Shown here one piece after another: positions 5,992 to 44,010 of a DNA stretch of 49,397 bases. The stretch comes from Lysobacterales bacterium (GTDB lineage Bacteria; Pseudomonadota; Gammaproteobacteria; Xanthomonadales; SZUA-36): contig JBFFWN010000001.1 of assembly GCA_041570235.1 (NCBI GenBank), positions 1 through 49,397 on the forward strand, in the 5' to 3' direction. The notes below the pieces were generated by a model. That model was not told the origin of the DNA, did not search any database, and saw only the letters and a list, made by a program, of their open reading frames with translations. Both the position numbers and the translations under genes were made by a program. How positions within the stretch are numbered: the first letter of the stretch is position 1; every line of letters begins with the position of its first letter.

Positions 5992-6930
5992 ATGAGCAGA
6001 ACATTAATCATTGCAGAACACGACGGCTCGAGCCTCAACCCCAGCACTGCCAAATGCGCAAGCTGTGCGGCGGCCATCGGCCAACCCTTTGATATCGTGG
6101 TAATGGGTCATTCCATCAGCGATATCTGCGGCCAGGCGGCCGCCATTGATGGCGCATCTACGGTATTCGCCATTGATGCCGGTCACCTTGCCAAGCCGCT
6201 CGCGGCTGAACAGGCTGCAGAAATTGTCGCTTTGGCAGACGCCTACACTCATATCATCGGCCCATCAACGACTTATGGAAGGGACCTGATGCCCCGGATT
6301 GCCGCATTGCTGGGCGTTAACCAGGTGAGTGACATTTCAACCGTTGAAGGCCCGCACCAGTTCAAACGGCCGATATATGCAGGTAATGCCATAGTTGATG
6401 TGCATGCGCCTGATAACGTGAAGACCGTTGCCACGGTGCGCGTTGCCTCATGGAAGGCCGCTGGCGATTCCGGTGGCGCAACGGTGGAGGAGCGCGCTGC
6501 AAGTTCGACAGCCAGTACACACACCCGCTATGTTGAGCTGAAATCCGGTGGCGGCGAACGCCCCGATCTGCAAGCTGCAGGACGCGTGATTTCGGGTGGC
6601 CGTGCGATGGGCAGCGAGGAAAACTTTGAATTGATATACAGCCTGGCAGATTTGATCGGCGCCGGCGTGGGCGCTTCCCGCGCAGCGGTTGATGCCGGTT
6701 ATTGCCCGAACGACATGCAGGTTGGCCAGACCGGCAAAATCATCGCCCCGGATCTGTATATTGCATTTGGCATCTCCGGCGCCATCCAGCACATCACCGG
6801 CATCAAGGATGCGGGCACGATTGTTGCGGTTAACAAGGATGCCGACGCACCTATTTTTGAAGTGGCGGATATCGGCCTGGTGGCCGATTTGTTCACCGTC
6901 ATCCCGGAGATGAAGCAGCTGCTTTCCTGA
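5992..6930 (+). CDS. etfA: Electron transfer flavoprotein alpha subunit
   Basis: 312 aa with the C-terminal FAD-binding signature [21 protein letters not shown]...[16 protein letters not shown]. Confidence 0.93.
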
Positions 6931-6948
6931 TATGCAAAAACATACCGG

Positions 6949-8910
<1,962 letters not shown>

Positions 8911-8959
8911 AGGGCTTTAGCTACTTCGATAAGATACGTGGCAGCGTTGGCGGCGCTAT

Positions 8960-9049
8960 GGGTAGTCCCTGCTGAGACATGCCGTAAACCCATCCCTGGG
9001 GGCGCGTCCAAAACATCCATGTTTTGTACGGTCTCAGCAGGGACTACCC
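8960..9049. repeat. Compound hairpin module H1 (copy A)
   Basis: An 18-bp outer stem, GGGTAGTCCCTGCTGAGA / TCTCAGCAGGGACTACCC, encloses an inner stem CAAAAC/GTTTTG and an unpaired segment, ACCCATCCCTGGGGGCGCG. Confidence 0.8.
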
Positions 9050-9324
9050 ACATCCCCGCCTCGGTTCAATGGATTCTAATTTAAGCGGTAGCTTCAAACT
9101 TTTGTGCGGATACTTCATGCAGCAATAGTCTCTTCAAGGTTCATGGTTCTATCGCTGCCGCTAGAGCGCATCTCACAGCCATTGATTCGTGATGCAGGCA
9201 CCTGAGCGCAACGGAGACCGATAAAATCTGCGTGAAAAGCACCTCGCTTTCAGAATGGGGATACAATCTTGACCGGCGGGGTGTAAATGATTTAACAGAA
9301 TCGACGGCTTAGAGCCGGGATGCA

Positions 9325-9412
9325 GGTACTGCTCCCAGGGACCGTCACAAACAGGAAGTTTGTGGACGAGGCCCCATGGATGGGTTCACGCCGGGTCCCT
9401 GGGAGCAGTACC
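9325..9412. repeat. Compound hairpin module H2 (copy A)
   Basis: An 18-bp outer stem, GGTACTGCTCCCAGGGAC / GTCCCTGGGAGCAGTACC, encloses CGTCACAAAC-AGGAA-GTTTGTGGACG plus GGCCCCATGGATGGGTTCACG. The interior is the reverse complement of the H1 interior. Confidence 0.8.
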
Positions 9413-9572
9413 TGTAGCGCGGCTGACGCTCGCACTATTCAATTCGAGGCCACCTGATGAAGCCTTATTGATTAAGAACAAGTTAGGCTGATAGAAGCTA
9501 CGGATAATCCTATTCGCACTTCCAGAGCCACACTATCAACTCTGAGTCACGCACCTAGCGAAAACTCGCCGC

Positions 9573-10733
9573 TTACAGAACACCATCAAGTTCATCAATC
9601 AGGTCATTAACGTCCTCAACCCCCACCGATAAACGCACCAGCGAATCTGTAATACCGATTTTGGCCCGCTTTTCGGGAGGCACCGAGGCATGTGTCATTA
9701 CCGCCGGCAGGTTTATCAGGCTTTCAACGCCGCCAAGGCTTTCGGCAAGTGAGAACAACTGGCAGCCTTCCAGCATCCTCCGCGAGGCGTCGGGGCCGCC
9801 TTTCAGGTCAATGCTGATAATGCCGCCGCCCATGCCATTCATCTGCCGCATGGCAAGCTCGTGCTGCGGGTGTGATTCCAGTCCCGGGTAGATCGTTTTT
9901 GAAACCGCCGGGTGCTTCTCCAGCCACTTGGCAATCTGCAAGGCATTATCGCAATGGGCTTTCATTCTCAAGGCAAGGGTTTTCAAGCCCCGCATAGCCA
10001 GGAAACTGTCAAATGGCCCCTGTATTGCGCCCACAGAATTGAGCAGATACCAGAGCCGGTCACCAAGCTCGATATCATCGCCGACCACGGCAATCCCGCC
10101 CACCATGTCCGAGTGACCATTCAGAAACTTGGTGGCAGAGTGAACCACTATGTCGGCCCCCAGTTCCAATGGCCGCTGCAAAACCGGCGAGGCAAAGGTG
10201 TTATCCACCACCAGTAAGGCCCCATGCTGTTTGGCTATCTCTGAGAGCTCTTTGATATCAACAACTTTCAACATCGGGTTGGTCGGCGTCTCCAGCCAGA
10301 TCATACGGGTTTCGGGCCGCAGGGCCGCCTTGATATCAGCCATGCTGTCCATGCCTGAAAACGTGAAACTCAAACCGGCGGAGCGTCCCCGAACGTTGTT
10401 AAACAGCCTGAAACTGCCACCGTACAGGTCATCAATGGCCAGCACATGGTCACCGGTATCGAGCAATTCGAGTACGGTCGAAGTCGCAGCCATTCCGGAC
10501 GCAAAAGCCAGCCCACGGGTGCCACTCTCGAGGTTTGCCATGCATTTTTCATAGGCATCACGGGTCGGATTATGACTGCGCGAGTACTCCCAGCCCTGAT
10601 GGTCGCCGGGGCTACGCTGAACGTAGGTGGATGTCGCGTAAATGGGTGTCATGATGGCGCCCGTTGACGGGTCCGGCTGCTGACCTGCATGAATGGCCCG
10701 GGTTGCTAGTGCGTGTTTTGTGTGATCTTTCAT
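9573..10733 (-). CDS. Cystathionine gamma-lyase / trans-sulfuration PLP enzyme (Cys/Met metabolism family)
   Basis: 386 aa with ATRAIHAGQ...DP.TGA...PIY.TSTY at the N-terminus and the PLP-lysine motif HSATKFLNGHSD. It overlaps the stop of the upstream CBS gene by 4 nt, indicating an operon. Confidence 0.88.
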   Translation of the reverse strand: MKDHTKHALATRAIHAGQQPDPSTGAIMTPIYATSTYVQRSPGDHQGWEYSRSHNPTRDAYEKCMANLESGTRGLAFASGMAATSTVLELLDTGDHVLAIDDLYGGSFRLFNNVRGRSAGLSFTFSGMDSMADIKAALRPETRMIWLETPTNPMLKVVDIKELSEIAKQHGALLVVDNTFASPVLQRPLELGADIVVHSATKFLNGHSDMVGGIAVVGDDIELGDRLWYLLNSVGAIQGPFDSFLAMRGLKTLALRMKAHCDNALQIAKWLEKHPAVSKTIYPGLESHPQHELAMRQMNGMGGGIISIDLKGGPDASRRMLEGCQLFSLAESLGGVESLINLPAVMTHASVPPEKRAKIGITDSLVRLSVGVEDVNDLIDELDGVL

Positions 10734-12103
10734 TGGTCTGCTTTTCTGCGTAGGTAATTGAGCAAGTCCACCCGGGTAATCAGACCCAGAAAACGCCCTG
10801 AGTCTTTTACAATGGCAACCATGTCCTTGTGGAATATGGGCAGTAAATCCTCAACAGAGTCGCTTTTATCCACCGATGCCAGTTCGGTCACCATGGCCGA
10901 GCTGACCGGCTTATTGAAACTGTCATCTGATTTTTCAACGGCAAGCAGTATGTCCGACTCATCAATGAAACCCACAATATTGCGATTCTCAATAACCGGC
11001 AGCTGCGAAACATCGTATAGCTTCATGCGGCTGTAAGCATTGGCCAATGGTTCATCCGGACCAACGATAATGGTGTCATTGGACTCAAACGGACGTGCAA
11101 TGAGGTCACGCAGATCACCATGTTGTTCAAAGCTGATAAACCCCTGGTCCTGCATCCAGAAATCGTTATACATTTTTGACAGGTATCGATTTCCGGTGTC
11201 GCAGGCAAAGGTCAGTACCTTTTTGGGCTCGGTCTGTTGCTGGCAATACTTAAGGGCAGCCGCCACCAGCGTTCCGGAAGATGATCCCCCCAGGATTCCT
11301 TCCTTAATCAGAAGCTCCCTGCCGGTTAACATGCTTTCACGATCACCGATGGCAAATGCCCTCGATACGCGGGTGAAATCACTGATGGTGGGCAGGAAAT
11401 CTTCGCCGATACCTTCCACCAGCCAGCTGGCGCTTTTTTCTGACAGGGTGCCCTCATTGATATACTCAGCCAAAATGGACCCTTCGGGGTCGGCCAGCAC
11501 CAACTCCAGGTCCGGCGCTACTTTCTCAAAATAACGCGACAGGCCGGTAACCGTGCCGCTGGAACCAACACCCAGCACGATGGCATCCAGATCGTGACCC
11601 ATCTGATCCCAGATTTCCGGACCGGTGACTTCTTCATGGGCCTTGGGGTTTGATGGATTTCCAAACTGGTTAATAAAATAGGCGCCTTCGATTTCACTGG
11701 CCATAGATTGCGCCAGGTCCTGGTAATATTCGGGATGACCCTTGGCCACGTCTGAGCGTGTCAACACCACTTTTGCACCCATGGCCCTCAGGTTGGAAAT
11801 CTTCTCCCGGCTCATTTTGTCCGGAATAACCAAAATCAATTCATAACCCTTCTGCGCCGCAACCAGCGCCAGGCCCAGGCCGGTATTGCCCGCCGTGCCC
11901 TCCACCAGTGTCGCACCCGGTTTGAGCAAGCCGGCTCTTTCTGCGTCCTCGATCATTCTCAGGCCAATCCGGTCTTTAATCGACCCACCCGGATTCTGGT
12001 TTTCCAGTTTGATATACAGACTGCAGGGACCTGTATCCAGGTGATTGACACGCACAACCGGCGTGTTCCCAATTAAATCCAGCACAGAGTCATAAACTTG
12101 CAT
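10730..12103 (-). CDS. Cystathionine beta-synthase (PLP domain plus tandem CBS domains)
   Basis: 457 aa with GNTPVVR, the PLP-lysine motif NPGGSIKDR and GTAGNTG. The C-terminal ~120 aa has CBS-pair character (LYDVSQLPV...VGFIDESDIL...). Confidence 0.88.
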   Translation of the reverse strand: MQVYDSVLDLIGNTPVVRVNHLDTGPCSLYIKLENQNPGGSIKDRIGLRMIEDAERAGLLKPGATLVEGTAGNTGLGLALVAAQKGYELILVIPDKMSREKISNLRAMGAKVVLTRSDVAKGHPEYYQDLAQSMASEIEGAYFINQFGNPSNPKAHEEVTGPEIWDQMGHDLDAIVLGVGSSGTVTGLSRYFEKVAPDLELVLADPEGSILAEYINEGTLSEKSASWLVEGIGEDFLPTISDFTRVSRAFAIGDRESMLTGRELLIKEGILGGSSSGTLVAAALKYCQQQTEPKKVLTFACDTGNRYLSKMYNDFWMQDQGFISFEQHGDLRDLIARPFESNDTIIVGPDEPLANAYSRMKLYDVSQLPVIENRNIVGFIDESDILLAVEKSDDSFNKPVSSAMVTELASVDKSDSVEDLLPIFHKDMVAIVKDSGRFLGLITRVDLLNYLRRKADQ

Positions 12104-12121
12104 AGAGATTTTTGCTCCGGT

Positions 12122-12152
12122 AAAAAAAACGGTCGGGAAGATTCCCGACCGT
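12122..12152 (-). terminator. Rho-independent terminator downstream of the YdcH-like gene
   Basis: On the minus strand, ACGGTCGGGAA-TC-TTCCCGACCGT (an 11-bp GC-rich stem) is followed by a run of eight T. Confidence 0.7.
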
Positions 12153-12186
12153 ACTTTATGTCATTTTTGTTGAAATTTCAGGTTTG

Positions 12187-12393
12187 TTATTGAGCCATAA
12201 ACACGGCTAATTTGTCCTTGATCCACAATTTTTCTTTCTTTAGCTGGTTCAGAGCCAGGTCTTCCATCGGAGCCGTACCCAATTCAGCTGCTGTGACGCG
12301 TTTGTCCAGTTCCTGGTGACGGTTGTAGATCCGACGAAAGTCTTCGTTTTCCTCGATCAGTTGTTCCATTTTGCTCTTTTGGTCTGAAAACAT
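12187..12393 (-). CDS. YdcH/DUF465-family small protein
   Basis: 68 aa (MFSDQKSKMEQLIEENEDFRRIYNRHQELDKRV...LKKEKLWIKDKL), the typical DUF465 pattern. The ATG at 12393 has GGAG 8 nt upstream. The 36-aa N-terminal extension in the track ORF looks non-coding. Confidence 0.7.
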   Translation of the reverse strand: MFSDQKSKMEQLIEENEDFRRIYNRHQELDKRVTAAELGTAPMEDLALNQLKKEKLWIKDKLAVFMAQ

Positions 12394-12715
12394 ATGTAGT
12401 ACTCCTATACGGCGTGGTTCATCCGCAAATGCCGGGCACAGAATAACCTTCCGGAAGCGGATGATTGATGATTTGGTGAATTGAAAAACAGTATGTAGCA
12501 AATATCAGGTGGGAACAGCGAGAGACTTATAAGCCTCGCTGCCATTATTCGGAATCTCCGATTTTGAAAGCTAAAATTACCATAGCGATGCACTAACATT
12601 AGCGCAAACTGAAGCTTCTGGCAAGCAGTAAACCTTTCAGCGATTTGCGTAACATGAATTGCTTTTCGCAAATGCGGACCAGCAATAAATCAGCGTGCCT
12701 ATGTAACTGATATAA

Positions 12716-13702
12716 CTAATTATCCAGAAGAATCACATCCACTCGCCGGTTACGCGCCCTACCCTCTTCGGTATCATTGCTGGCAATCGGAAAATCTTCA
12801 CCCATGCCCATGGCGGTAACCCTCTCGGCATCGACACCGAGGCTGATCAGCGAATCGCGAACTGCCTGTGCCCGCTTTTCCGAAAGCAACAAATTGGCGG
12901 CAGCATCACCGCTGGAATCGGTATGGCCCTCGACGCGGTTTTTTTTGTCGGGCTCGGTCTGCAGCAGATCAACCACTTCTTCAAGGCTGGATCGACCACC
13001 TTCAACCAATTCGGCCTGACCGGAGGCAAACAGCACATCACCCAGGGTGACAACGACGCCGCTTTCTGTTTCACGCAGTTGCAGGTTCTCCAACTGACGT
13101 GTCAATGAGTCTATCTGCTGGCTCGCCAGTTCAGCTTCACGTTTGGCAAATTCCGCTTCCGATGCCCTGGATTTGGCCAGCCGGCGTGCCTGTTCAGCCT
13201 CTTCTGCTGACAACTGGGCAGCTCTGGCAGATTCAGCCTCTTTCTTCTCTGCATCCTCTTTCTCTTCGAGAGCACGCTGAGCTTCCTCGGCAGTGGTTGC
13301 CACCAGCAATAGCGCTTCCTCGGCTTCCATGCGGGCCTGACTCGCCTCAATCTGGCTGGCCTTGATCAGCATGTTGCTATGCTGCTCGGATAATTCTTCA
13401 TATATCTTGTCGTACTGTTCCCTTTCGGCCATGGTGCGGGCAATCTGGATACGGCGGTCAGCCATGTAAACAAGATAGGAGCGATAGATATCATCACCCT
13501 GGGCCAGCTCGGCCTTGCGTAAAGCCCTTTCCGCTTCACCCAGCGCAAGCGGCGCGTAACCGGCCAACTCGGCATTGGATTTAAGATTGTCCAGTTCATC
13601 ACGGACACGCTCAAGAGCGAGGTCCTTTTTCGGCGCTGCGGTGCAGGCAGCAAGAATGATGGGCAAAGATAATAATGCGATTCGGGTCAGTGCTCGTTTC
13701 AT
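12716..13702 (-). CDS. OmpA-family lipoprotein with N-terminal DUF4398-like coiled coil
   Basis: Lipobox LAAC, a long E/A/R coiled coil, and a C-terminal OmpA domain (VEGHTDSSG...NLLLSEKRAQAV...NRRVDVIL). Confidence 0.85.
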   Translation of the reverse strand: MKRALTRIALLSLPIILAACTAAPKKDLALERVRDELDNLKSNAELAGYAPLALGEAERALRKAELAQGDDIYRSYLVYMADRRIQIARTMAEREQYDKIYEELSEQHSNMLIKASQIEASQARMEAEEALLLVATTAEEAQRALEEKEDAEKKEAESARAAQLSAEEAEQARRLAKSRASEAEFAKREAELASQQIDSLTRQLENLQLRETESGVVVTLGDVLFASGQAELVEGGRSSLEEVVDLLQTEPDKKNRVEGHTDSSGDAAANLLLSEKRAQAVRDSLISLGVDAERVTAMGMGEDFPIASNDTEEGRARNRRVDVILLDN

Positions 13703-14064
13703 TTGAAATCATCCCCAAAGGTTGAACGCAATTTCTCTTCCAACTCCTGGTTGTTCTTGCGCTGCTCATTAACGCGTCTTCTGGCCTTGGCCGTGCGGGA
13801 CTTTTCAATCGCCAGTTCGGCATTGATTTCAGCTTCTTCCAATAAAAAAACCGCCACTTCGTATTTCTGCTTTTCCATACCCAGTTGGGCGCTGGAAAAT
13901 TTTTCACGTGCAAAGCGCATTTCCACCGGCGCAAACTCGTCACCACCCGCTTCTTCCGCCGCCAACATGGTCGCTTCCACGGCTTCCATGATCGTGGGAT
14001 CCGGACGGGGCGCCGCGCAGGCAGCCAGCAACAAACAAAAAACTGAAATCAAAATGGCTTTCAT
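13699..14064 (-). CDS. DUF4398-like lipoprotein
   Basis: Starting at the ATG at 14064 gives MKAILISVFCLLLAACAAP (signal plus lipobox). The rest is a helical A/E-rich body, and a 4-nt overlap links it to the downstream OmpA-family gene. Confidence 0.65.
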   Translation of the reverse strand: MKAILISVFCLLLAACAAPRPDPTIMEAVEATMLAAEEAGGDEFAPVEMRFAREKFSSAQLGMEKQKYEVAVFLLEEAEINAELAIEKSRTAKARRRVNEQRKNNQELEEKLRSTFGDDFK

Positions 14065-14153
14065 GAATGGAATACCTGATAAAACATTAAACTGATTATG
14101 ACCCAACCACCGCAAAGGTTGAACTCCTAAATTGCCAAACCATCATTCTGTCT

Positions 14154-14825
14154 TTAAAGCAAAACAGCATCCGGTTGATTTTCCGGCGCCGCGTTAATAA
14201 ACGCAGTGTGCTGCCTGCATTCTGTCACAATTCTACCCAACAACGGAAACATCGTCATGTCCGTGCCGTAACGTTCTGCGTTATAAACCTGCGGAATCAG
14301 AAAACATTCAAATAATCCGGGTTCAACAGGCAGGTTAACAGAGTGACCGCCAGACTTTTCCGCCAACTGTTTTTCAATGGCTGCCAACCCCTCACCCATC
14401 CAATGTAACATCCACTTTGTGATGTCAATATGCCCCTCACACTGGCTTTTGAGATATTTCTGAACCCGCAGATTATTCAGCGGATGAATATCACAGGCCA
14501 CCTGCAAAGCCAGCGACCTGATATGCGCCCGCTGCAGTATATCTTTGGGTAACAGGGGATAATCGCGATAGCGCTCATCGAGATATTCGCAAATCGCCAT
14601 CGACTGGGTGATGATATTTCCATTGTCTGACAGCACCGGCACCAGGGCCTGGGGATTAATTCGGCTGTATGGTTCCTGCAGGTGTTCACCGCCCTCGCCG
14701 ACCAGGTTGACAGCAATGGTCTCGTAAACCAGGCCTTTCAGATTCAGCGCGATCCTGACACGGTATGCTGCAGAGCTACGCCAATAGCTGTAAAGCTTCA
14801 ATCCGTCATTCGGGTCAGCCTTCAT
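14154..14825 (-). CDS. maiA: Maleylacetoacetate isomerase (zeta-class glutathione S-transferase)
   Basis: LKLYSYWRSSAAYRVRIALNLKG...NPQALVPVL is the MaiA N-terminal signature. The ATG at 14825 (or the TTG at 14801) is the likely start. The 66-aa extension of the track ORF overlaps the upstream FAH gene and is rejected. Confidence 0.8.
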   Translation of the reverse strand: MKADPNDGLKLYSYWRSSAAYRVRIALNLKGLVYETIAVNLVGEGGEHLQEPYSRINPQALVPVLSDNGNIITQSMAICEYLDERYRDYPLLPKDILQRAHIRSLALQVACDIHPLNNLRVQKYLKSQCEGHIDITKWMLHWMGEGLAAIEKQLAEKSGGHSVNLPVEPGLFECFLIPQVYNAERYGTDMTMFPLLGRIVTECRQHTAFINAAPENQPDAVLL

Positions 14826-15801
14826 AAGAAACGATGGTTTGCTCGATGGCGCCAAATATAGAGTCGCCGTTTGCATCAAACATTTCAATCCGGATGGTAT
14901 CGCCAAACGACATGAAGGGGGTGCTGGGTTTACCGTCTGCGATAATCTCCAGCATCCTGATTTCCGCCAGGCACGAGGCCCCTTTACTGGTATCTTCGTT
15001 GGCAATAGTGCCTGAACCCACAATTGTGCCGGCAGTTAACGGGCGGGTTTTGGCTGCATGGGCCACCAGTTGCGCAAAATTGAACTGCATATCAACCCCC
15101 GCCTCGGGGCACCCGAAAAACGCCCCGTTGAGCTTGCTGTGCAGCGGCAATGACAACTTGCTGTTCTGCCATTTATCGCCCAGCTCATCAGGTGTGACCA
15201 ACACGGGAGACAGGGCTGACCTGGGCTTGGATTGTAAAAAGCCAAAACCTTTTGCCAGTTCACCGGGAATGAGATTTCTCAAGCTCACGTCATTGATCAG
15301 GCCAATCAACTGGATATGGGATTCTGCCGCTTCAGCACTCACTGCCATGGGCACGTCGTCGGTGACGACAACGATTTCCGATTCGAAATCGATACCGTAG
15401 TCCTCGCTGACCACTGCGACCGGGTCCCTGGGTCCCAGAAAGCCGGCCGAGGTGGCCTGGTACATCAACGGGTCAACATAAAACGACTCTGGAACCTCTG
15501 CACCGCGCGCCTTGCGCACCCGGTCGACATGGGGCAGGTACGCGCTGCCGTCGACAAACTCGTAGGCCCTGGGCAGCGGCGCCGCCAGTAGCTGCACATC
15601 CAGGGCAGTAATACCGGGGCAGGAATTTTCATTTAAAGCCTGGTACAGGGCGTTCAGCCTTGGCGCAGCCTGGTGCCAGTCATCGAGTGCAATTTGCAAG
15701 GTGGGCGCAATCCCGCCCGCAGAAACATAGGTCTGGAGGTCACGGCTAACCACGATCAGGCTACCGTCACGACCACCGGTTTTTAATGAAGCAAGTTTCA
15801 T
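14815..15801 (-). CDS. Fumarylacetoacetate hydrolase family protein
   Basis: About 328 aa from the ATG at 15801 (MKLASLKTGGRDGSLIVVSRDL...). The C-terminal FAH fold and the operon with maiA fit a fumarylacetoacetate/fumarylpyruvate hydrolase role. Confidence 0.8.
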   Translation of the reverse strand: MKLASLKTGGRDGSLIVVSRDLQTYVSAGGIAPTLQIALDDWHQAAPRLNALYQALNENSCPGITALDVQLLAAPLPRAYEFVDGSAYLPHVDRVRKARGAEVPESFYVDPLMYQATSAGFLGPRDPVAVVSEDYGIDFESEIVVVTDDVPMAVSAEAAESHIQLIGLINDVSLRNLIPGELAKGFGFLQSKPRSALSPVLVTPDELGDKWQNSKLSLPLHSKLNGAFFGCPEAGVDMQFNFAQLVAHAAKTRPLTAGTIVGSGTIANEDTSKGASCLAEIRMLEIIADGKPSTPFMSFGDTIRIEMFDANGDSIFGAIEQTIVSYEG

Positions 15802-15981
15802 AGCCGTCAACAACTCCAGGGGTTCGTCGGAAAATTGGCCCAATTGTAAGGGATTTTAATAGCTCGTGCGGTGTCACACTGATCAAACTTGTAAAGATGG
15901 CGAAGGGTAACAATATAAACCGGGTGATCGAAATGTGTGATCACAAATCCGCCTGTTAAACAATCAATGGGATAAACAATA

Positions 15982-16719
15982 GTGGAGATACCTTCAATTC
16001 TGATCTGGCTGCTCCAGTTGGCGCTGATCATTCATGTGTTTAAAACCGATCGCAGCCGTTACTGGATTTTTTTCCTGATTTTTATGCCATTGATCGGCGG
16101 CATTGCGTATTTCCTCATTGAAATGCTACCCGGATTTACCGGCAGTATCGAAGGCCAGCGAGCTGTCAGAACCGTCAAACAAACTTTGAACCCCGGGGCC
16201 GACCTGCGGCAACATGAAGCTGCCTGGAGCCAATCTCCGAATGTTGATAATGGGCGCCGTTACGCCGAAGCACTGATGGACGCCGGTAAAATTGAAGACG
16301 CGGAAATAATCATCAACCAGGCGCTGAAAGGGCTATTTGAAACCGAGCCAACCCTGTTGCTGCTGAAAGCCCGCTTGCAGTTCGAGACCGGCAGAACCAG
16401 CGAAGCCGTGGCAACCCTCGAATCCCTGCAGGAGCACAATCCGGATTTTCGCTCGGCCGAAGGTCACCTTCTGTACGCCCGCGCGCTTGAGGCCGAAGGC
16501 AAGATCGACAGTGCCATCCGCGAATATTCGGCGGTGTCCGGCTACTATCCCGGCGTCGAAGCCCGCTACCGGCTGGCCCTATGCATGCAGTCTGCGGGCA
16601 ATGACAAAGCCTCGCGATCTGAATTTGAGTCCATTCTAAATGATGCAAAACTGGCGCCTCCTCATTTCCGGAAAAGCCAGAAGACCTGGCTGGATGCAAT
16701 CAGGCGCGACATGGCTTAA
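15982..16719 (+). CDS. Membrane protein with PLDc_N-like N-terminal helices and C-terminal TPR-like repeats
   Basis: GTG start. Two N-terminal TM helices (LLQLALIIHVFKTDRSRYWIFFLIFMPLIGGIAYFLIEMLP) resemble the cardiolipin-synthase N-terminal motif. The remainder is helical-repeat sequence. Confidence 0.6.
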   Translation: MEIPSILIWLLQLALIIHVFKTDRSRYWIFFLIFMPLIGGIAYFLIEMLPGFTGSIEGQRAVRTVKQTLNPGADLRQHEAAWSQSPNVDNGRRYAEALMDAGKIEDAEIIINQALKGLFETEPTLLLLKARLQFETGRTSEAVATLESLQEHNPDFRSAEGHLLYARALEAEGKIDSAIREYSAVSGYYPGVEARYRLALCMQSAGNDKASRSEFESILNDAKLAPPHFRKSQKTWLDAIRRDMA

Positions 16720-16927
16720 GCGCCCCGTGTCATCCCGTGATATGCGGATAGCATTTTCTGGGATCACTGAAAGCTACCTTAAACTCAAAGACAACGGATG
16801 TAGAACGGTTTCGTTCATATACGTGGCCAATCGGAATCCTGGATATCCATAAGACTGACTTGCCCTAAAAATGGAGTCCTTTTCAGGTGGGTTCGAAGCA
16901 AATAGTGCGAGCGTCAGCCGCGCTACA

Positions 16928-17062
16928 GGTACTACTCCCTGGGACCCGGCATGAACCCATCCATGGGGCCTCGTCCACAAACTTCCTCGGTAATTGCTCC
17001 TGCATTACTCTACCTCCTACTTCCCTGCAGTCGTGTTTGTGACGGTCCCAGTGAGTAGTACC
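16928..17062. repeat. Compound hairpin module H2 (copy B, with 47-nt loop insertion)
   Basis: The outer stem is GGTACTACTCCCTGGGAC / GTCCCAGTGAGTAGTACC. Two stem positions differ from copy A on both arms and pairing is preserved. Confidence 0.8.
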
Positions 17063-17338
17063 TGCATCCCGGCTTTAGGCCATCAATTCTAACAAGTCAT
17101 TTGCACCCAACCGGTTGAGAGTGATTCCCGCATCCTGAAAGTGAGTTGCTTATCACGCTGACTTTATCGGTCTCCGTTGCGCTCCGGTACCTGCATCACA
17201 AATCCATGGCTGTGAGACTCAATGCACCGGCAGCGATGGAACCATGAGCGCTGAAGAGACTATTACGACAAACAGTATTTGCACAAAAGCTGGAAGCTAC
17301 CGCTTCAATCAGAATCCATTGCACCGAGGCGGGGATGT

Positions 17339-17427
17339 GGGTAGTCCCTGCTGAGACCGTACAAAACAGGAAGTTTTGGACGCGCCCCCAGGGATGGGTT
17401 CACGGCATGTCTCAGCAGGGACTACCC
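17339..17427. repeat. Compound hairpin module H1 (copy B)
   Basis: The outer stem is identical to H1 of copy A. Differences are confined to the apical loop (AGGAA vs ATGGAT) and one base of the unpaired segment. Confidence 0.8.
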
Positions 17428-17677
17428 ATAGCGCCGCCAACGCTGCCGCGCATTTTAACGAAGTCGGAATTTGATGATCTATCGTTTGAAGTTGCAGAAA
17501 TCTGATGAAGGTCTCGGGTTCCTTTAATCGCGGCCCCGGAATGGCTTCTGCAGTTCTGCTGAGCGCTACCCTGTAAAAATCAAATAACCATCCCCATTTA
17601 ATGCCTTCAGTAAGCATCACGTTTATAATTGCCGCCCCGTACCATCCTATGGGTTATGAAAGACAGGAGATTTTGTT

Positions 17678-18025
17678 GTGCCGATTTATGAATACCGTTG
17701 TGAATCTTGTGATCATAAACTGGAAAAATTGCAAAGAATGAGCGAAGGCGACCTGGTCGATTGCCCCGAGTGTAAACGGCCGGCGTTAAAAAGGCTGGTC
17801 TCTGCTCCTGCATTTCGACTCAAGGGCAGTGGTTGGTACGAGACAGACTTCAAGAAAGACAATAAGCGTAACCTGGCCGATGAGTCCGTCAAGGACACAT
17901 CCAGCGTCAGTTCGGCCAAGGATACCAGTGCCGGCAGTTCCACCAAGACGGAAAAAGCTTCGTCAGGCGATACGGCCAAGAAAGCGGAATCCAAGCCCGC
18001 AGCAAAAACAGCTTCCAAGGAATAA
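17678..18025 (+). CDS. FmdB-family zinc-ribbon protein
   Basis: [23 protein letters not shown]....CPECK......[19 protein letters not shown] is the FmdB CxxC...CxxC signature. It has a GTG start and a low-complexity S/K/A tail. Confidence 0.8.
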
Positions 18026-31151: not shown

Positions 31152-31227
31152 GGGTCGTTAGCTCAGTTGGTAGAGCACTGGACTTTTAATCCATTGGTCG
31201 TAGGTTCGAATCCTACACGACCCACCA
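31152..31227 (+). tRNA. tRNA-Lys (anticodon UUU)
   Basis: The 76 nt fold manually into a cloverleaf: acceptor GGGTCGT/ACGACCC, D-arm GCTC/GAGC, anticodon loop CTTTTAA, T-arm GTAGG-TTCGAAT-CCTAC, and an encoded CCA. It is near-identical in pattern to E. coli tRNA-Lys. Confidence 0.95.
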
Positions 31228-31309: not shown

Positions 31310-31606
31310 CTAAGTTTCGGGGTCTGCCAGGTACTGTTGTGCAGAATTCTTGAAATCGTCATACAGGGGGACGGCTTTTCGGGCTTTTAGATCAAACGTC
31401 ACCGTCACGTTTTCCATCGTCGCAGCCAACTCCCCGGTGTTGCGGTTAACCATCCTGTGGTGATGCACAAAAGATTTATTGCCAAGGCTGATCAGTACAC
31501 TTTCTATGTACACCAAAGCCCCGCTCCGCAGCTCTTGCTTGTATTCGAGGGTTGATTTTACATCAGCGAAGCCTTCGCCCCTTTTCAGCATCTCTTCCTG
31601 CGGCAC
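31310..31606 (-). pseudogene. 5'-truncated hotdog-fold thioesterase remnant
   Basis: The 98-aa ORF matches only the C-terminal two-thirds of 4HBT/YbgC-like thioesterases (...YIESVLISLGNKSFVHHHRMVNRNTGELAATMENVTVTFDLKARKAVP). The N-terminal catalytic DTD...H region is missing, and the reading frame runs straight into the MITE-like repeat at 31601+. Confidence 0.55.
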
Positions 31607-31739
31607 TCGGGGGACAGTTTACTTAATACCCACAGATTTCCCGGCACTCGGGGGGCAGTTTACTTAATACCCACAGATTTCAGCGGCTTTTTACGACAAA
31701 TTTAGTTTGCCCTGATATCCATTTAAGTAAACTGTCCCC
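31601..31739. mobile_element. MITE-like element copy 1 (complete 90-bp unit 31650-31739 plus a 40-bp tandem duplicate of its left end and flank, 31601-31640)
   Basis: Terminal inverted repeats are GGGG(G/A)CAGTTTACTTAA ... TTAAGTAAACTGTCCCC. There is no coding capacity. It is about 85% identical by eye to the copy at 43827-43916, in the same orientation. Confidence 0.7.
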
Positions 31740-31855
31740 TGATATGCTGATATCGCGATGCCTTCCACGAGCAATCGATTCTCAAAGTCGGCCATGCCTA
31801 CGAGCAGACCACGGACTGGCATAAACAACGCCCGCGGGTCTGACGAGCGCGTGGT

Positions 31856-43784: not shown

Positions 43785-43826
43785 CTTCCTCACGGAGGCA
43801 AAAGACGATAAAAGGCGAGCTCATTC

Positions 43827-43916
43827 GGGGGACAGTTTACATAATTCTCAGGGGTTTCAGCGGCTTTTTCCGACTAATTTAGTTTCCCATGATACCCATT
43901 TAAGTAAACTGTCCCC
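43827..43916. mobile_element. MITE-like element copy 2
   Basis: GGGGGACAGTTTACATAA ... TTAAGTAAACTGTCCCC. It has the same length, orientation and internal sequence (TTTCAGCGGCTTTTT.CGAC.AATTTAGTTT) as copy 1. Confidence 0.7.
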
Positions 43917-44010
43917 TGATACCTGCTGCAGGTTAGATCTATTCCTGGCGATAAACTGAACTCAGCAAGGGCCGAGTCAGTCAGAATGATTGACACTGGG
44001 CAAAAATCTG

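Follow-up and report, generated by a model that had tools for sequence, protein, structure and literature searches.

Branched hairpins in a Lysobacterales bacterium belong to a dispersed family of palindromic repeats that may behave like REP elements

Two intergenic regions of a Lysobacterales genome each carry a pair of long compound hairpins, which raises the question of whether their structure has been kept by selection and, if so, what kind of element they belong to. The hairpins lie in a 49,397-nt stretch of DNA (assembly GCA_041570235.1, contig JBFFWN010000001.1, positions 1–49,397 of the forward strand), which is called the window throughout. The initial annotation of the window, made from its letters alone, proposed that they are a functional RNA or a single-stranded DNA (ssDNA) structure. 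The analysis described here places them in a family of modules with an invariant branched core. The chances are about even that these modules are large, branched palindromic units whose single-stranded fold is maintained and which behave like repetitive extragenic palindromes (REPs), bacterial interspersed mosaic elements (BIMEs) and REP doublets forming hairpins (REPINs).

Reading of the sequence and repeat analysis recovered all four hairpins at the positions first given for them, and their common interior was confirmed, since CCCCANGGATGGGTT is found 4 times in the window versus 0.52 times expected. When folded separately, the four modules give an identical three-way junction, in which a long stem (P1) carries two hairpins (P2 and P3). 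Module H1a, with a core of type 1 as described below, occupies positions 8945–9067 of the minus strand (P1 arms 8949–8978 and 9031–9060, P3 8982–9004, P2 9005–9030), and module H2a occupies 9306–9428 of the plus strand (P1 arms 9313–9343 and 9394–9424, P2 9343–9368, P3 9370–9392). Module H2b lies at 16912–17081 on the minus strand (P1 arms 16916–16946 and 17044–17074, P3 16948–16970, P2 16972–17044), and module H1b at 17321–17442 on the plus strand (P1 arms 17328–17357 and 17409–17438, P2 17358–17382, P3 17384–17406). H1a, H2a and H1b were matched by the covariance model of the family with 123, 116.8 and 117.4 bits, and no further module was detected in the window even when the filters of the model were turned off. 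The minimum free energies of the RNA folds were −73 to −78 kcal/mol. H1a (−74.1 kcal/mol), H2a (−77.8 kcal/mol) and H1b (−73.3 kcal/mol), which are about 123 nt long, each reached a z-score of about −8.3, and H2b, which carries an insertion, folded at −76.8 kcal/mol with a z-score of −5.4. As ssDNA, the z-scores were −8.9 to −10.4.

Several details of the first description had to be changed. The outer stems are not 18 bp but about 30–31 bp long, at 87–90% complementarity by the repeat analysis. They are also not completely different between H1 and H2, because together with the adjoining core they align at 73%, and they are therefore diverged homologues with compensated differences. Two compensated changes between H2a and H2b (G-C to A-T and A-T to T-A) were confirmed, but a third change, from G to T on the 3′ arm, is uncompensated and leaves one C·T mismatch in P1 of H2b. 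In addition, a 47-nt insertion with four GGA motifs is located in the P2 loop of H2b (16988–17034). The differences between H1a and H1b had been described as apical, which holds for the P2 loop, but one base of the P3 bulge is also changed. Covariation of the mini-stem CCCA/TGGG, which had been claimed for the window, is absent there but was seen in relatives, where this stem reads TACA/TGTA or GCACA/TGTGC.

The hairpins of the window are the ends of one non-coding unit of about 0.6–0.75 kb that was duplicated in inverted orientation, and the four of them are therefore not independent. The two copies are 89% identical. Unit A (about 8921–9530, boundaries approximate) consists of H1a, a linker, H2a and tails, and unit B (about 16800–17572) is its inverted copy at a synteny breakpoint. 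Within each unit, the two modules diverge with their 5′ sides toward the linker. The modules are 97–100% conserved between units A and B, whereas the 240-nt linker is about 80–84% conserved.

The modules are not restricted to these two loci. In total, 35 further loci were found in several gammaproteobacterial orders and in metagenomes: 12 by an exact-pattern scan of one genome per species and 23 more by a metagenome scan (labelled with L-numbers, such as L003 and L016). A covariance model was built from 27 copies and run over these loci, which gave 46 modules (45 distinct), including copies that the pattern had missed. The 12 genome loci come from Stenotrophomonas (Lysobacterales), Parahaliea (Cellvibrionales), a metagenome-assembled genome (MAG) recorded as Pseudomonas sp. 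and other gammaproteobacterial MAGs, and the metagenome copies include ones from marine sediments. The GC content of the loci spans 43–72%. The module was not found in E. coli genomes or viral contigs, and plasmids gave only 2 weak partial matches. At the gathering threshold of Rfam 15 the only match was a tRNA elsewhere in the window, and at an E-value threshold only sub-threshold miRNA-hairpin noise was returned around the modules. A tRNA/tmRNA scan gave nothing at the modules, and a module sequence string had no match in the literature, where the check for novelty was incomplete. The family thus appears to be uncatalogued. One locus, L012, is titled as a contig of Bacillus subtilis (strain SK7B5, contig00063). 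It has 67% GC, near the module it is almost identical to L035, a Stenotrophomonas-like locus from a metagenome, and it is probably a contaminant contig in the Bacillus assembly.

A module is about 120 nt long. P1, with 28–31 bp, closes the three-way junction, and P2 and P3 form a branched 52-nt core. P2 is a hairpin of 7–10 bp that usually begins with CGTC and is followed by one junction base. P3 has a lower stem of 3 bp, a 5-nt bulge on the 3′ side (UUCAC or CUUGC), an upper stem of 4 bp and a 4-nt loop, and two or three bases after P3 close the junction. Two subtypes of the core were recognised, which read GAGCCCCCAKGGAUGGGUUCACGG (type 1) and GAGCYUACANGGAYGUAYUUGCRG (type 2). Across orders, almost no variation is seen in the junction, the 5-nt bulge or the two apical loops. 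A possible pseudoknot between a leader AUCCAU and the P2 loop AUGGAU was rejected, as it shows no covariation, and readings as group II intron domain V, tRNA T-loop or attC were rejected because the pairing does not fit. Insertion of the core into pre-existing REP hairpins was also rejected: no 'empty' palindromes of the P1 type exist in the window, and the P1 sequences of a clade are homologous to one another instead of being specific to their loci.

Covariation was measured on the 45 distinct copies. Standard pairs filled 93.1% of the paired cells versus 64.2% in shuffled alignments, and when the partners were slid by 1–3 columns only 37–43% of the cells were paired. Changes on both sides were observed in 40 of the 43 pairs (547 cells), and for all five measures none of 500 shuffles matched the observed value. 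A separate MAFFT alignment of 27 copies, made without regard to structure, gave 90.5% paired cells versus 68.3% in shuffles, with both-side changes in 33 of 43 pairs. The sequence of P1 is free, yet 94% of its cells are paired. All 27 pairs of P1 covary, as do 8 of the 9 in P2 and all 3 in lower P3 (GCC/GGC, GGC/GCC, ACC/GGU and GCU/AGC), and two pairs of upper P3 covary also (CCCA/UGGG versus UACA/UGUA). The stems contain 1725 Watson-Crick, 55 G·U (2.9%) and 19 A·C pairs. They are almost purely Watson-Crick, and both strands can therefore fold.

Among individual loci, compensation is clearest in the orthologous edd-eda spacer of two Stenotrophomonas-like genomes. Between L003 and L031/L032 the core is identical, and P1 has about 8 differing positions and a 2-nt indel, every one of which is matched on the opposite arm. 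The neighbouring coding DNA is about 88% identical by eye, and the spacer is rich in indels. The pairing statistics and the compensation at edd-eda bear out the initial proposal of a selected RNA or ssDNA structure, and the single-stranded fold is well supported as the conserved object. Covariation of such clarity, which extends to compensated indels between orthologous copies, is unusual. The core also surpasses the neighbouring genes in conservation, which points to a specific protein partner.

All of the copies examined are intergenic, mostly 20–100 nt past a stop codon and typically between convergent genes. The neighbouring genes are unrelated housekeeping genes (purD/sigma factor, lpdA, edd/eda, gyrA, dnaE/rnhB, metG, tex, dbpA and others), and different insertion sites showed no synteny with one another. 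Most modules are antisense to the gene that they follow, but sense cases also exist, among them L014/L017, L013 and H1b of the window. The usual arrangement is the head-to-head doublet, of which there are about 10, with gaps of 44–262 nt. In addition, 2 pairs are tail-to-tail and share a conserved linker of 29 nt, and tandem copies occur. The doublets often pair a type 1 with a type 2 core. The whole unit of the window recurs with internal deletions in other gene contexts (L016, L024 and L029), and the 3′ tail of H2a (9429–9530, plus strand) is conserved in unit B and in these three loci. In a complete Stenotrophomonas genome, the exact pattern hit only 2 stretches, which hold 5 modules by the covariance model, and about 88 kb of DNA from relatives contained no module. 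The initial annotation had suggested looking for copies near a Y1 transposase or REP-associated tyrosine transposase (RAYT), an IS110-type or another recombinase gene. None was found in the flanks examined or in the annotated parts of the window.

Traces of local rearrangement were observed at three loci. In the linker of the L007 doublet (6912–7108), the truncated remainder of a module is present and about 100 nt are duplicated in tandem, and in L010 (1383–1725) a 221-nt tandem duplication encloses a complete module. At both loci, repeats have been amplified and have decayed locally. When L016 (1433–1620) is compared with 8921–9110 of the window, the H1 hairpin is cleanly deleted and the H1 tail (TGGTAGCGTTGGCGGCGCTATGGG) is joined straight to the linker, which is a hairpin-excision footprint.

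The source of the window is a marine-sediment gammaproteobacterium that is Woeseiaceae-like, and AspS homologues at 87–88% identity are labelled 'MAG: Xanthomonadales bacterium'. Strain variation at unit B was followed in conspecific MAGs, whose AspS and TPR proteins are 100% identical to those of the window. Almost all of the conspecific contigs terminate inside unit B, and the alleles found there differ. L046 and L049 combine an H2 stem and an H1-type core, and a GGAAC/GUUCC change is compensated in them. L047 has a module identical to H2a without the insertion. In L048, L050 and L051 the H1 end replaces the H2 end, and in L039 the H2 tail adjoins the Zn-ribbon gene. In three relatives, an M49 peptidase gene lies directly upstream of the Zn-ribbon/aspS genes without the unit. 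Their homology to the window starts at about 17565–17573, and from about 17573 onward all strains and relatives are collinear with it again. A conserved TATAAT promoter lies some 50 nt downstream of the start of this homology. These alleles and the synteny break indicate that the units are recombinogenic, that gene conversion swaps the cores, and that unit B is a rearrangement boundary. The units break metagenome assemblies and mark rearrangement breakpoints in these genomes. Because the stems are almost purely Watson-Crick and the cores swap between strains, correction of one arm by the other or gene conversion at the DNA level may make up part of the apparent compensation.

How far do these properties agree with known repeats? 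Like REPs, BIMEs and REPINs, the modules are extragenic palindromes that mostly follow stop codons and lie between convergent genes. They have two unit subtypes, alternating orientation and characteristic linkers, with the doublet as the dispersed unit, and the pairing of type 1 with type 2 resembles the Y and Z units of BIMEs. REPINs were reportedly described by Bertels and Rainey in 2011. As in the known families, complementary changes keep the palindromy, and turnover between strains is fast, and partial GTAG-like and CGTC-like tags may be a further likeness. For the REP/BIMEs of Stenotrophomonas, preservation of palindromy by complementary mutations, fast turnover and interstrain differences have been described (Nunvar 2010, PMC2817692), and REPs can be embedded in longer palindromes (Di Nocera 2013, PMC3733652).

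The family is placed here as working like REP/BIME elements and not as a member of them, because membership fails on three counts, namely size and shape, the part that is conserved and, probably, copy number. The module is branched, with a three-way junction, and about 120 nt long, whereas REPs are hairpins of 20–40 nt; its apex is fixed and its stem variable, which is the reverse of REPs; and its copy number looks low beside the more than 100 copies per genome expected of REP/BIME elements. Further points weigh against the likeness. The core is near-identical across orders, while REPs are usually species-specific, and no RAYT or other transposase was seen in the flanks and window parts mentioned above. 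The tags are only partial, since CGTC begins P2 in most copies and GGTAG, present in P1 of several, is base-paired and not terminal. The 100% conservation of the core at edd-eda, next to coding DNA at about 88% by eye, argues for a host-level function over a merely selfish element. If placed beside REPs, BIMEs and REPINs, the family would add a structurally complex element conserved across orders to this group, and it reverses the usual REP pattern.

Other mobile or recombining elements share fewer features. Miniature inverted-repeat transposable elements (MITEs), such as ERIC, Correia/NEMIS and RUP, are likewise intergenic repeats of 100–150 nt with long hairpins and possible co-transcription with their neighbours. 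In MITEs, however, the terminal inverted repeats are conserved and the interior is free, whereas the arms of the module are hypervariable and its interior is invariant. A MITE-type target-site duplication was considered but not established: the AGAATCC direct repeat flanks some copies only, in one clade, and could be the U-tract of an opposite-strand terminator. Integron attC sites are similar in that structure is conserved over sequence, the folded single strand acts, and branched apices are possible. They differ from the modules, where reading of the sequences showed no GTTRRRY R/L boxes at the bases of the stems, where a cassette arrangement and an integrase are lacking, and where the apex rather than the base is conserved.

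A branched core that is invariant across 43–72% GC and several orders suggests a partner that recognises the folded single strand in a sequence-specific way. In the REP-like reading, the core would be the recognition site of a protein acting on extruded DNA or on a transcript, and P1 would serve to present it. Complementarity of the arms would be kept by selection, with help from arm-to-arm templated repair and from gene conversion between copies. Spread and rearrangement would be due to a process at the DNA level, either a HUH/RAYT-like enzyme or homologous recombination.

The most serious alternative concerns the identity of that partner. The module may be an RNA bound by CsrA/RsmA, as a decoy or as a cis element, which is compatible with the repeat reading and is a tentative possibility. 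Read on the sense strand, P2 and P3 both end in a small GGA-bearing loop of the form CA-N-GGA-Y-G, closed by A-U and C-G. The P2 loops read CAUGGAUG, CAGGGAUG or CAGGAAG, and the P3 loops A(G/U/A/C)GGA(U/C). GGA is present in 43 of 45 P2 loops and in 45 of 45 P3 loops (one of these P3 'loops' is an aberrant insert-like region with GGA). The consensus selected for CsrA by SELEX (systematic evolution of ligands by exponential enrichment) is RUACARGGAUGU, and a consensus exists for RsmE also; these were reportedly described by Dubey in 2005 and Schubert in 2007. The module loops match both, and their variation is limited to N and Y, which are degenerate in the CsrA/RsmA consensus. With about 23 nt between the two GGA tips, a single CsrA dimer could bind both of them, and stability of the RNA would be the contribution of P1. 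Consistently, the sense fold is better than the antisense fold in 32 of 45 modules (mean −4.1 kcal/mol), and G·U pairs exceed A·C pairs. The insertion in H2b raises its number of GGA motifs from two to six. Over 28 nt, the insertion shares 93% identity with part of a GGA-rich region beside the L014 module that is about 300 nt long. The conservation of the edd-eda core above that of the adjacent coding DNA also fits an RNA of this kind.

Against CsrA/RsmA binding stands first the orientation. Most modules are antisense to the preceding gene, and the edd-eda operon mRNA would carry the complement. No sense-strand sigma-70 promoter, GacA box or terminator was found near the modules in scans, and in L008, L020 and L034 a bidirectional terminator lies directly 5′ of the sense module. 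Each module offers only two sites, its very low G·U content is atypical for structured RNAs, and Rfam gave no match to CsrB or RsmX/Y/Z. The modules resemble the CsrB, RsmX, RsmY and RsmZ small RNAs (sRNAs) in that the GGA motifs are in small hairpin loops of the CANGGAYG type. They are unlike these and RsmU in having two sites, a long perfect closing stem and dispersal in both orientations, and RsmU of Xanthomonas is unrelated to them in sequence.

A stronger form of the proposal, in which the family is a widespread CsrA/RsmA-binding structured RNA that propagates like a REPIN, as a two-site 'mini-sponge' or a cis-acting CsrA dock with its stem free under the pairing constraint, is rather unlikely and stands somewhat below the general one. 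In Xanthomonas, no RsmA-sequestering sRNA apart from RsmU has been found, and homologues of the known Csr/Rsm sRNAs are absent from the genomes (PMC7694677). If the partner were CsrA/RsmA, the modules would bear on what antagonises RsmA in Xanthomonadales-type bacteria. They could be the Rsm antagonists that Lysobacterales and marine-sediment Gammaproteobacteria largely lack, and a mobile repeat family would be linked to global post-transcriptional control.

The GGA-rich region in L014 (6245–6545, minus strand) was looked at separately. It is placed tail-to-tail with the L014 module and lies between two Rho-independent terminators. It contains about 8 GGA motifs, including those of a GCACAUGGAUGUGC hairpin and a repeated GCAGGAGC, and has no match in Rfam. 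Judged from these features, it is a candidate sRNA of the Csr/Rsm type. The DNA retrieved for the analysis contained no CsrA gene.

The other alternatives can be treated more briefly, because none of them explains the invariant branched core together with the dispersal. It is improbable that the modules are generic 3′-end hairpins, that is, terminators without a U tract or stabilisers of mRNA against exonucleases that work in either orientation. Such stabilisation has been proposed as a role of REPs, and the usual site 20–100 nt past a stop codon, often between convergent genes, fits it, as does the strong folding of both strands. It leaves the sequence-invariant branched core and the doublet architecture unexplained, some copies lie upstream of genes (H1b of the window and L013), one is inside an operon spacer, and no U tract was found at the modules.

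It is very unlikely that the 7.4-kb segment between the units is a composite mobile or invertible element, with units A and B as its long terminal inverted repeats and the hairpins as its recombinase sites. Inverted units of about 600 bp, 89% identical, on both sides of this segment and the synteny breakpoint at unit B would be expected from such an element. However, the segment (9573–16719) holds ordinary metabolic and envelope genes (a Cys/Met PLP enzyme, a CBS-domain PALP enzyme, OmpA/DUF4398, a GST, an FAA hydrolase and a TPR protein), none of which has a mobile-element function and none of which is a transposase or recombinase. Single units and single modules stand alone at many other loci, and the strain variants change the TPR-adjacent module in ways that simple inversion cannot yield. 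No transposase or recombinase was present among the ten large open reading frames annotated at 31–49 kb of the window either.

Equally small is the chance that the modules are functionless palindromes whose arms are kept complementary by intrastrand template switching and whose core is kept uniform by gene conversion: near-perfect, wobble-poor stems, A-T to T-A swaps without a wobble intermediate, and the compensated differences and swapped cores of strains whose flanking proteins are identical agree with it, but template switching leaves the short P2/P3 covariation, the conserved bulge and the loop invariance across orders at 43–72% GC unexplained, the core is identical between genera, beyond the reach of gene conversion, and at edd-eda it is more conserved than coding DNA.

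The surroundings of the two units are as follows. Unit A is flanked by the stop codons of an AMP-binding/acetoacetyl-CoA-synthetase-like gene (8910, plus strand) and of the Cys/Met PLP enzyme gene (9573, minus strand). Its linker (9068–9305) joins the 5′ sides of the diverging H1a and H2a and contains a weak terminator-like hairpin at about 9083–9110. The linker of unit B (17082–17320) lies between H2b and H1b, and reading of the sequences revealed no small open reading frame conserved between the two linkers. The 3′ tail of H1b (17443–17572, plus strand) is variable between strains. Upstream of the Zn-ribbon/aspS operon, within 17600–17680, CGTTTATAATTGCC has 13 of 14 bases the same in the window, L042, L054 and L055. 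From its sequence, including the TATAAT box, it is likely the promoter of this operon, with unit B ending about 50 nt upstream.

The same spacer position as that of unit B is occupied differently in L055, a relative with 85% AspS identity. Its spacer between the M49 peptidase and Zn-ribbon genes contains five tandem copies of a 41-nt unit (AAGGCGTGATTGAACCGACATGGACGCACCTTGTAGGAGGG) at 9243–9448, each with CAUGGACG and GGAGGG, and Rfam gave no match to this array.

A short motif, AGAATCC(A), is found 10–17 nt 5′ of P1 at 17310–17317 and 9296–9303 of the window and at homologous positions of L014–L033, in the marine-sediment clade. Several loci have a second occurrence on the 3′ side of P1, at a distance of about 35 nt. 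The motif may represent a target-site duplication or a preferred target, or it may belong to the U-tract of an opposite-strand terminator.

The window also contains a second, unrelated hairpin repeat of about 100 nt, located at 31601–31744 and 43822–43921, with 20-bp inverted ends (TCGGGGGACAGTTTACTTAA and TTAAGTAAACTGTCCCCTGA). Its two copies are direct and 87% identical, and the first has a local duplication of 41 nt at 31601–31681. The copies bracket about 12 kb of xylose/xylan genes, including those for an AraC regulator, an FGGY kinase, a sugar transporter, GH120 and GH43, and this segment lies directly downstream of a tRNA-Lys gene (31152–31227). It looks like a MITE-flanked or island-like insertion.

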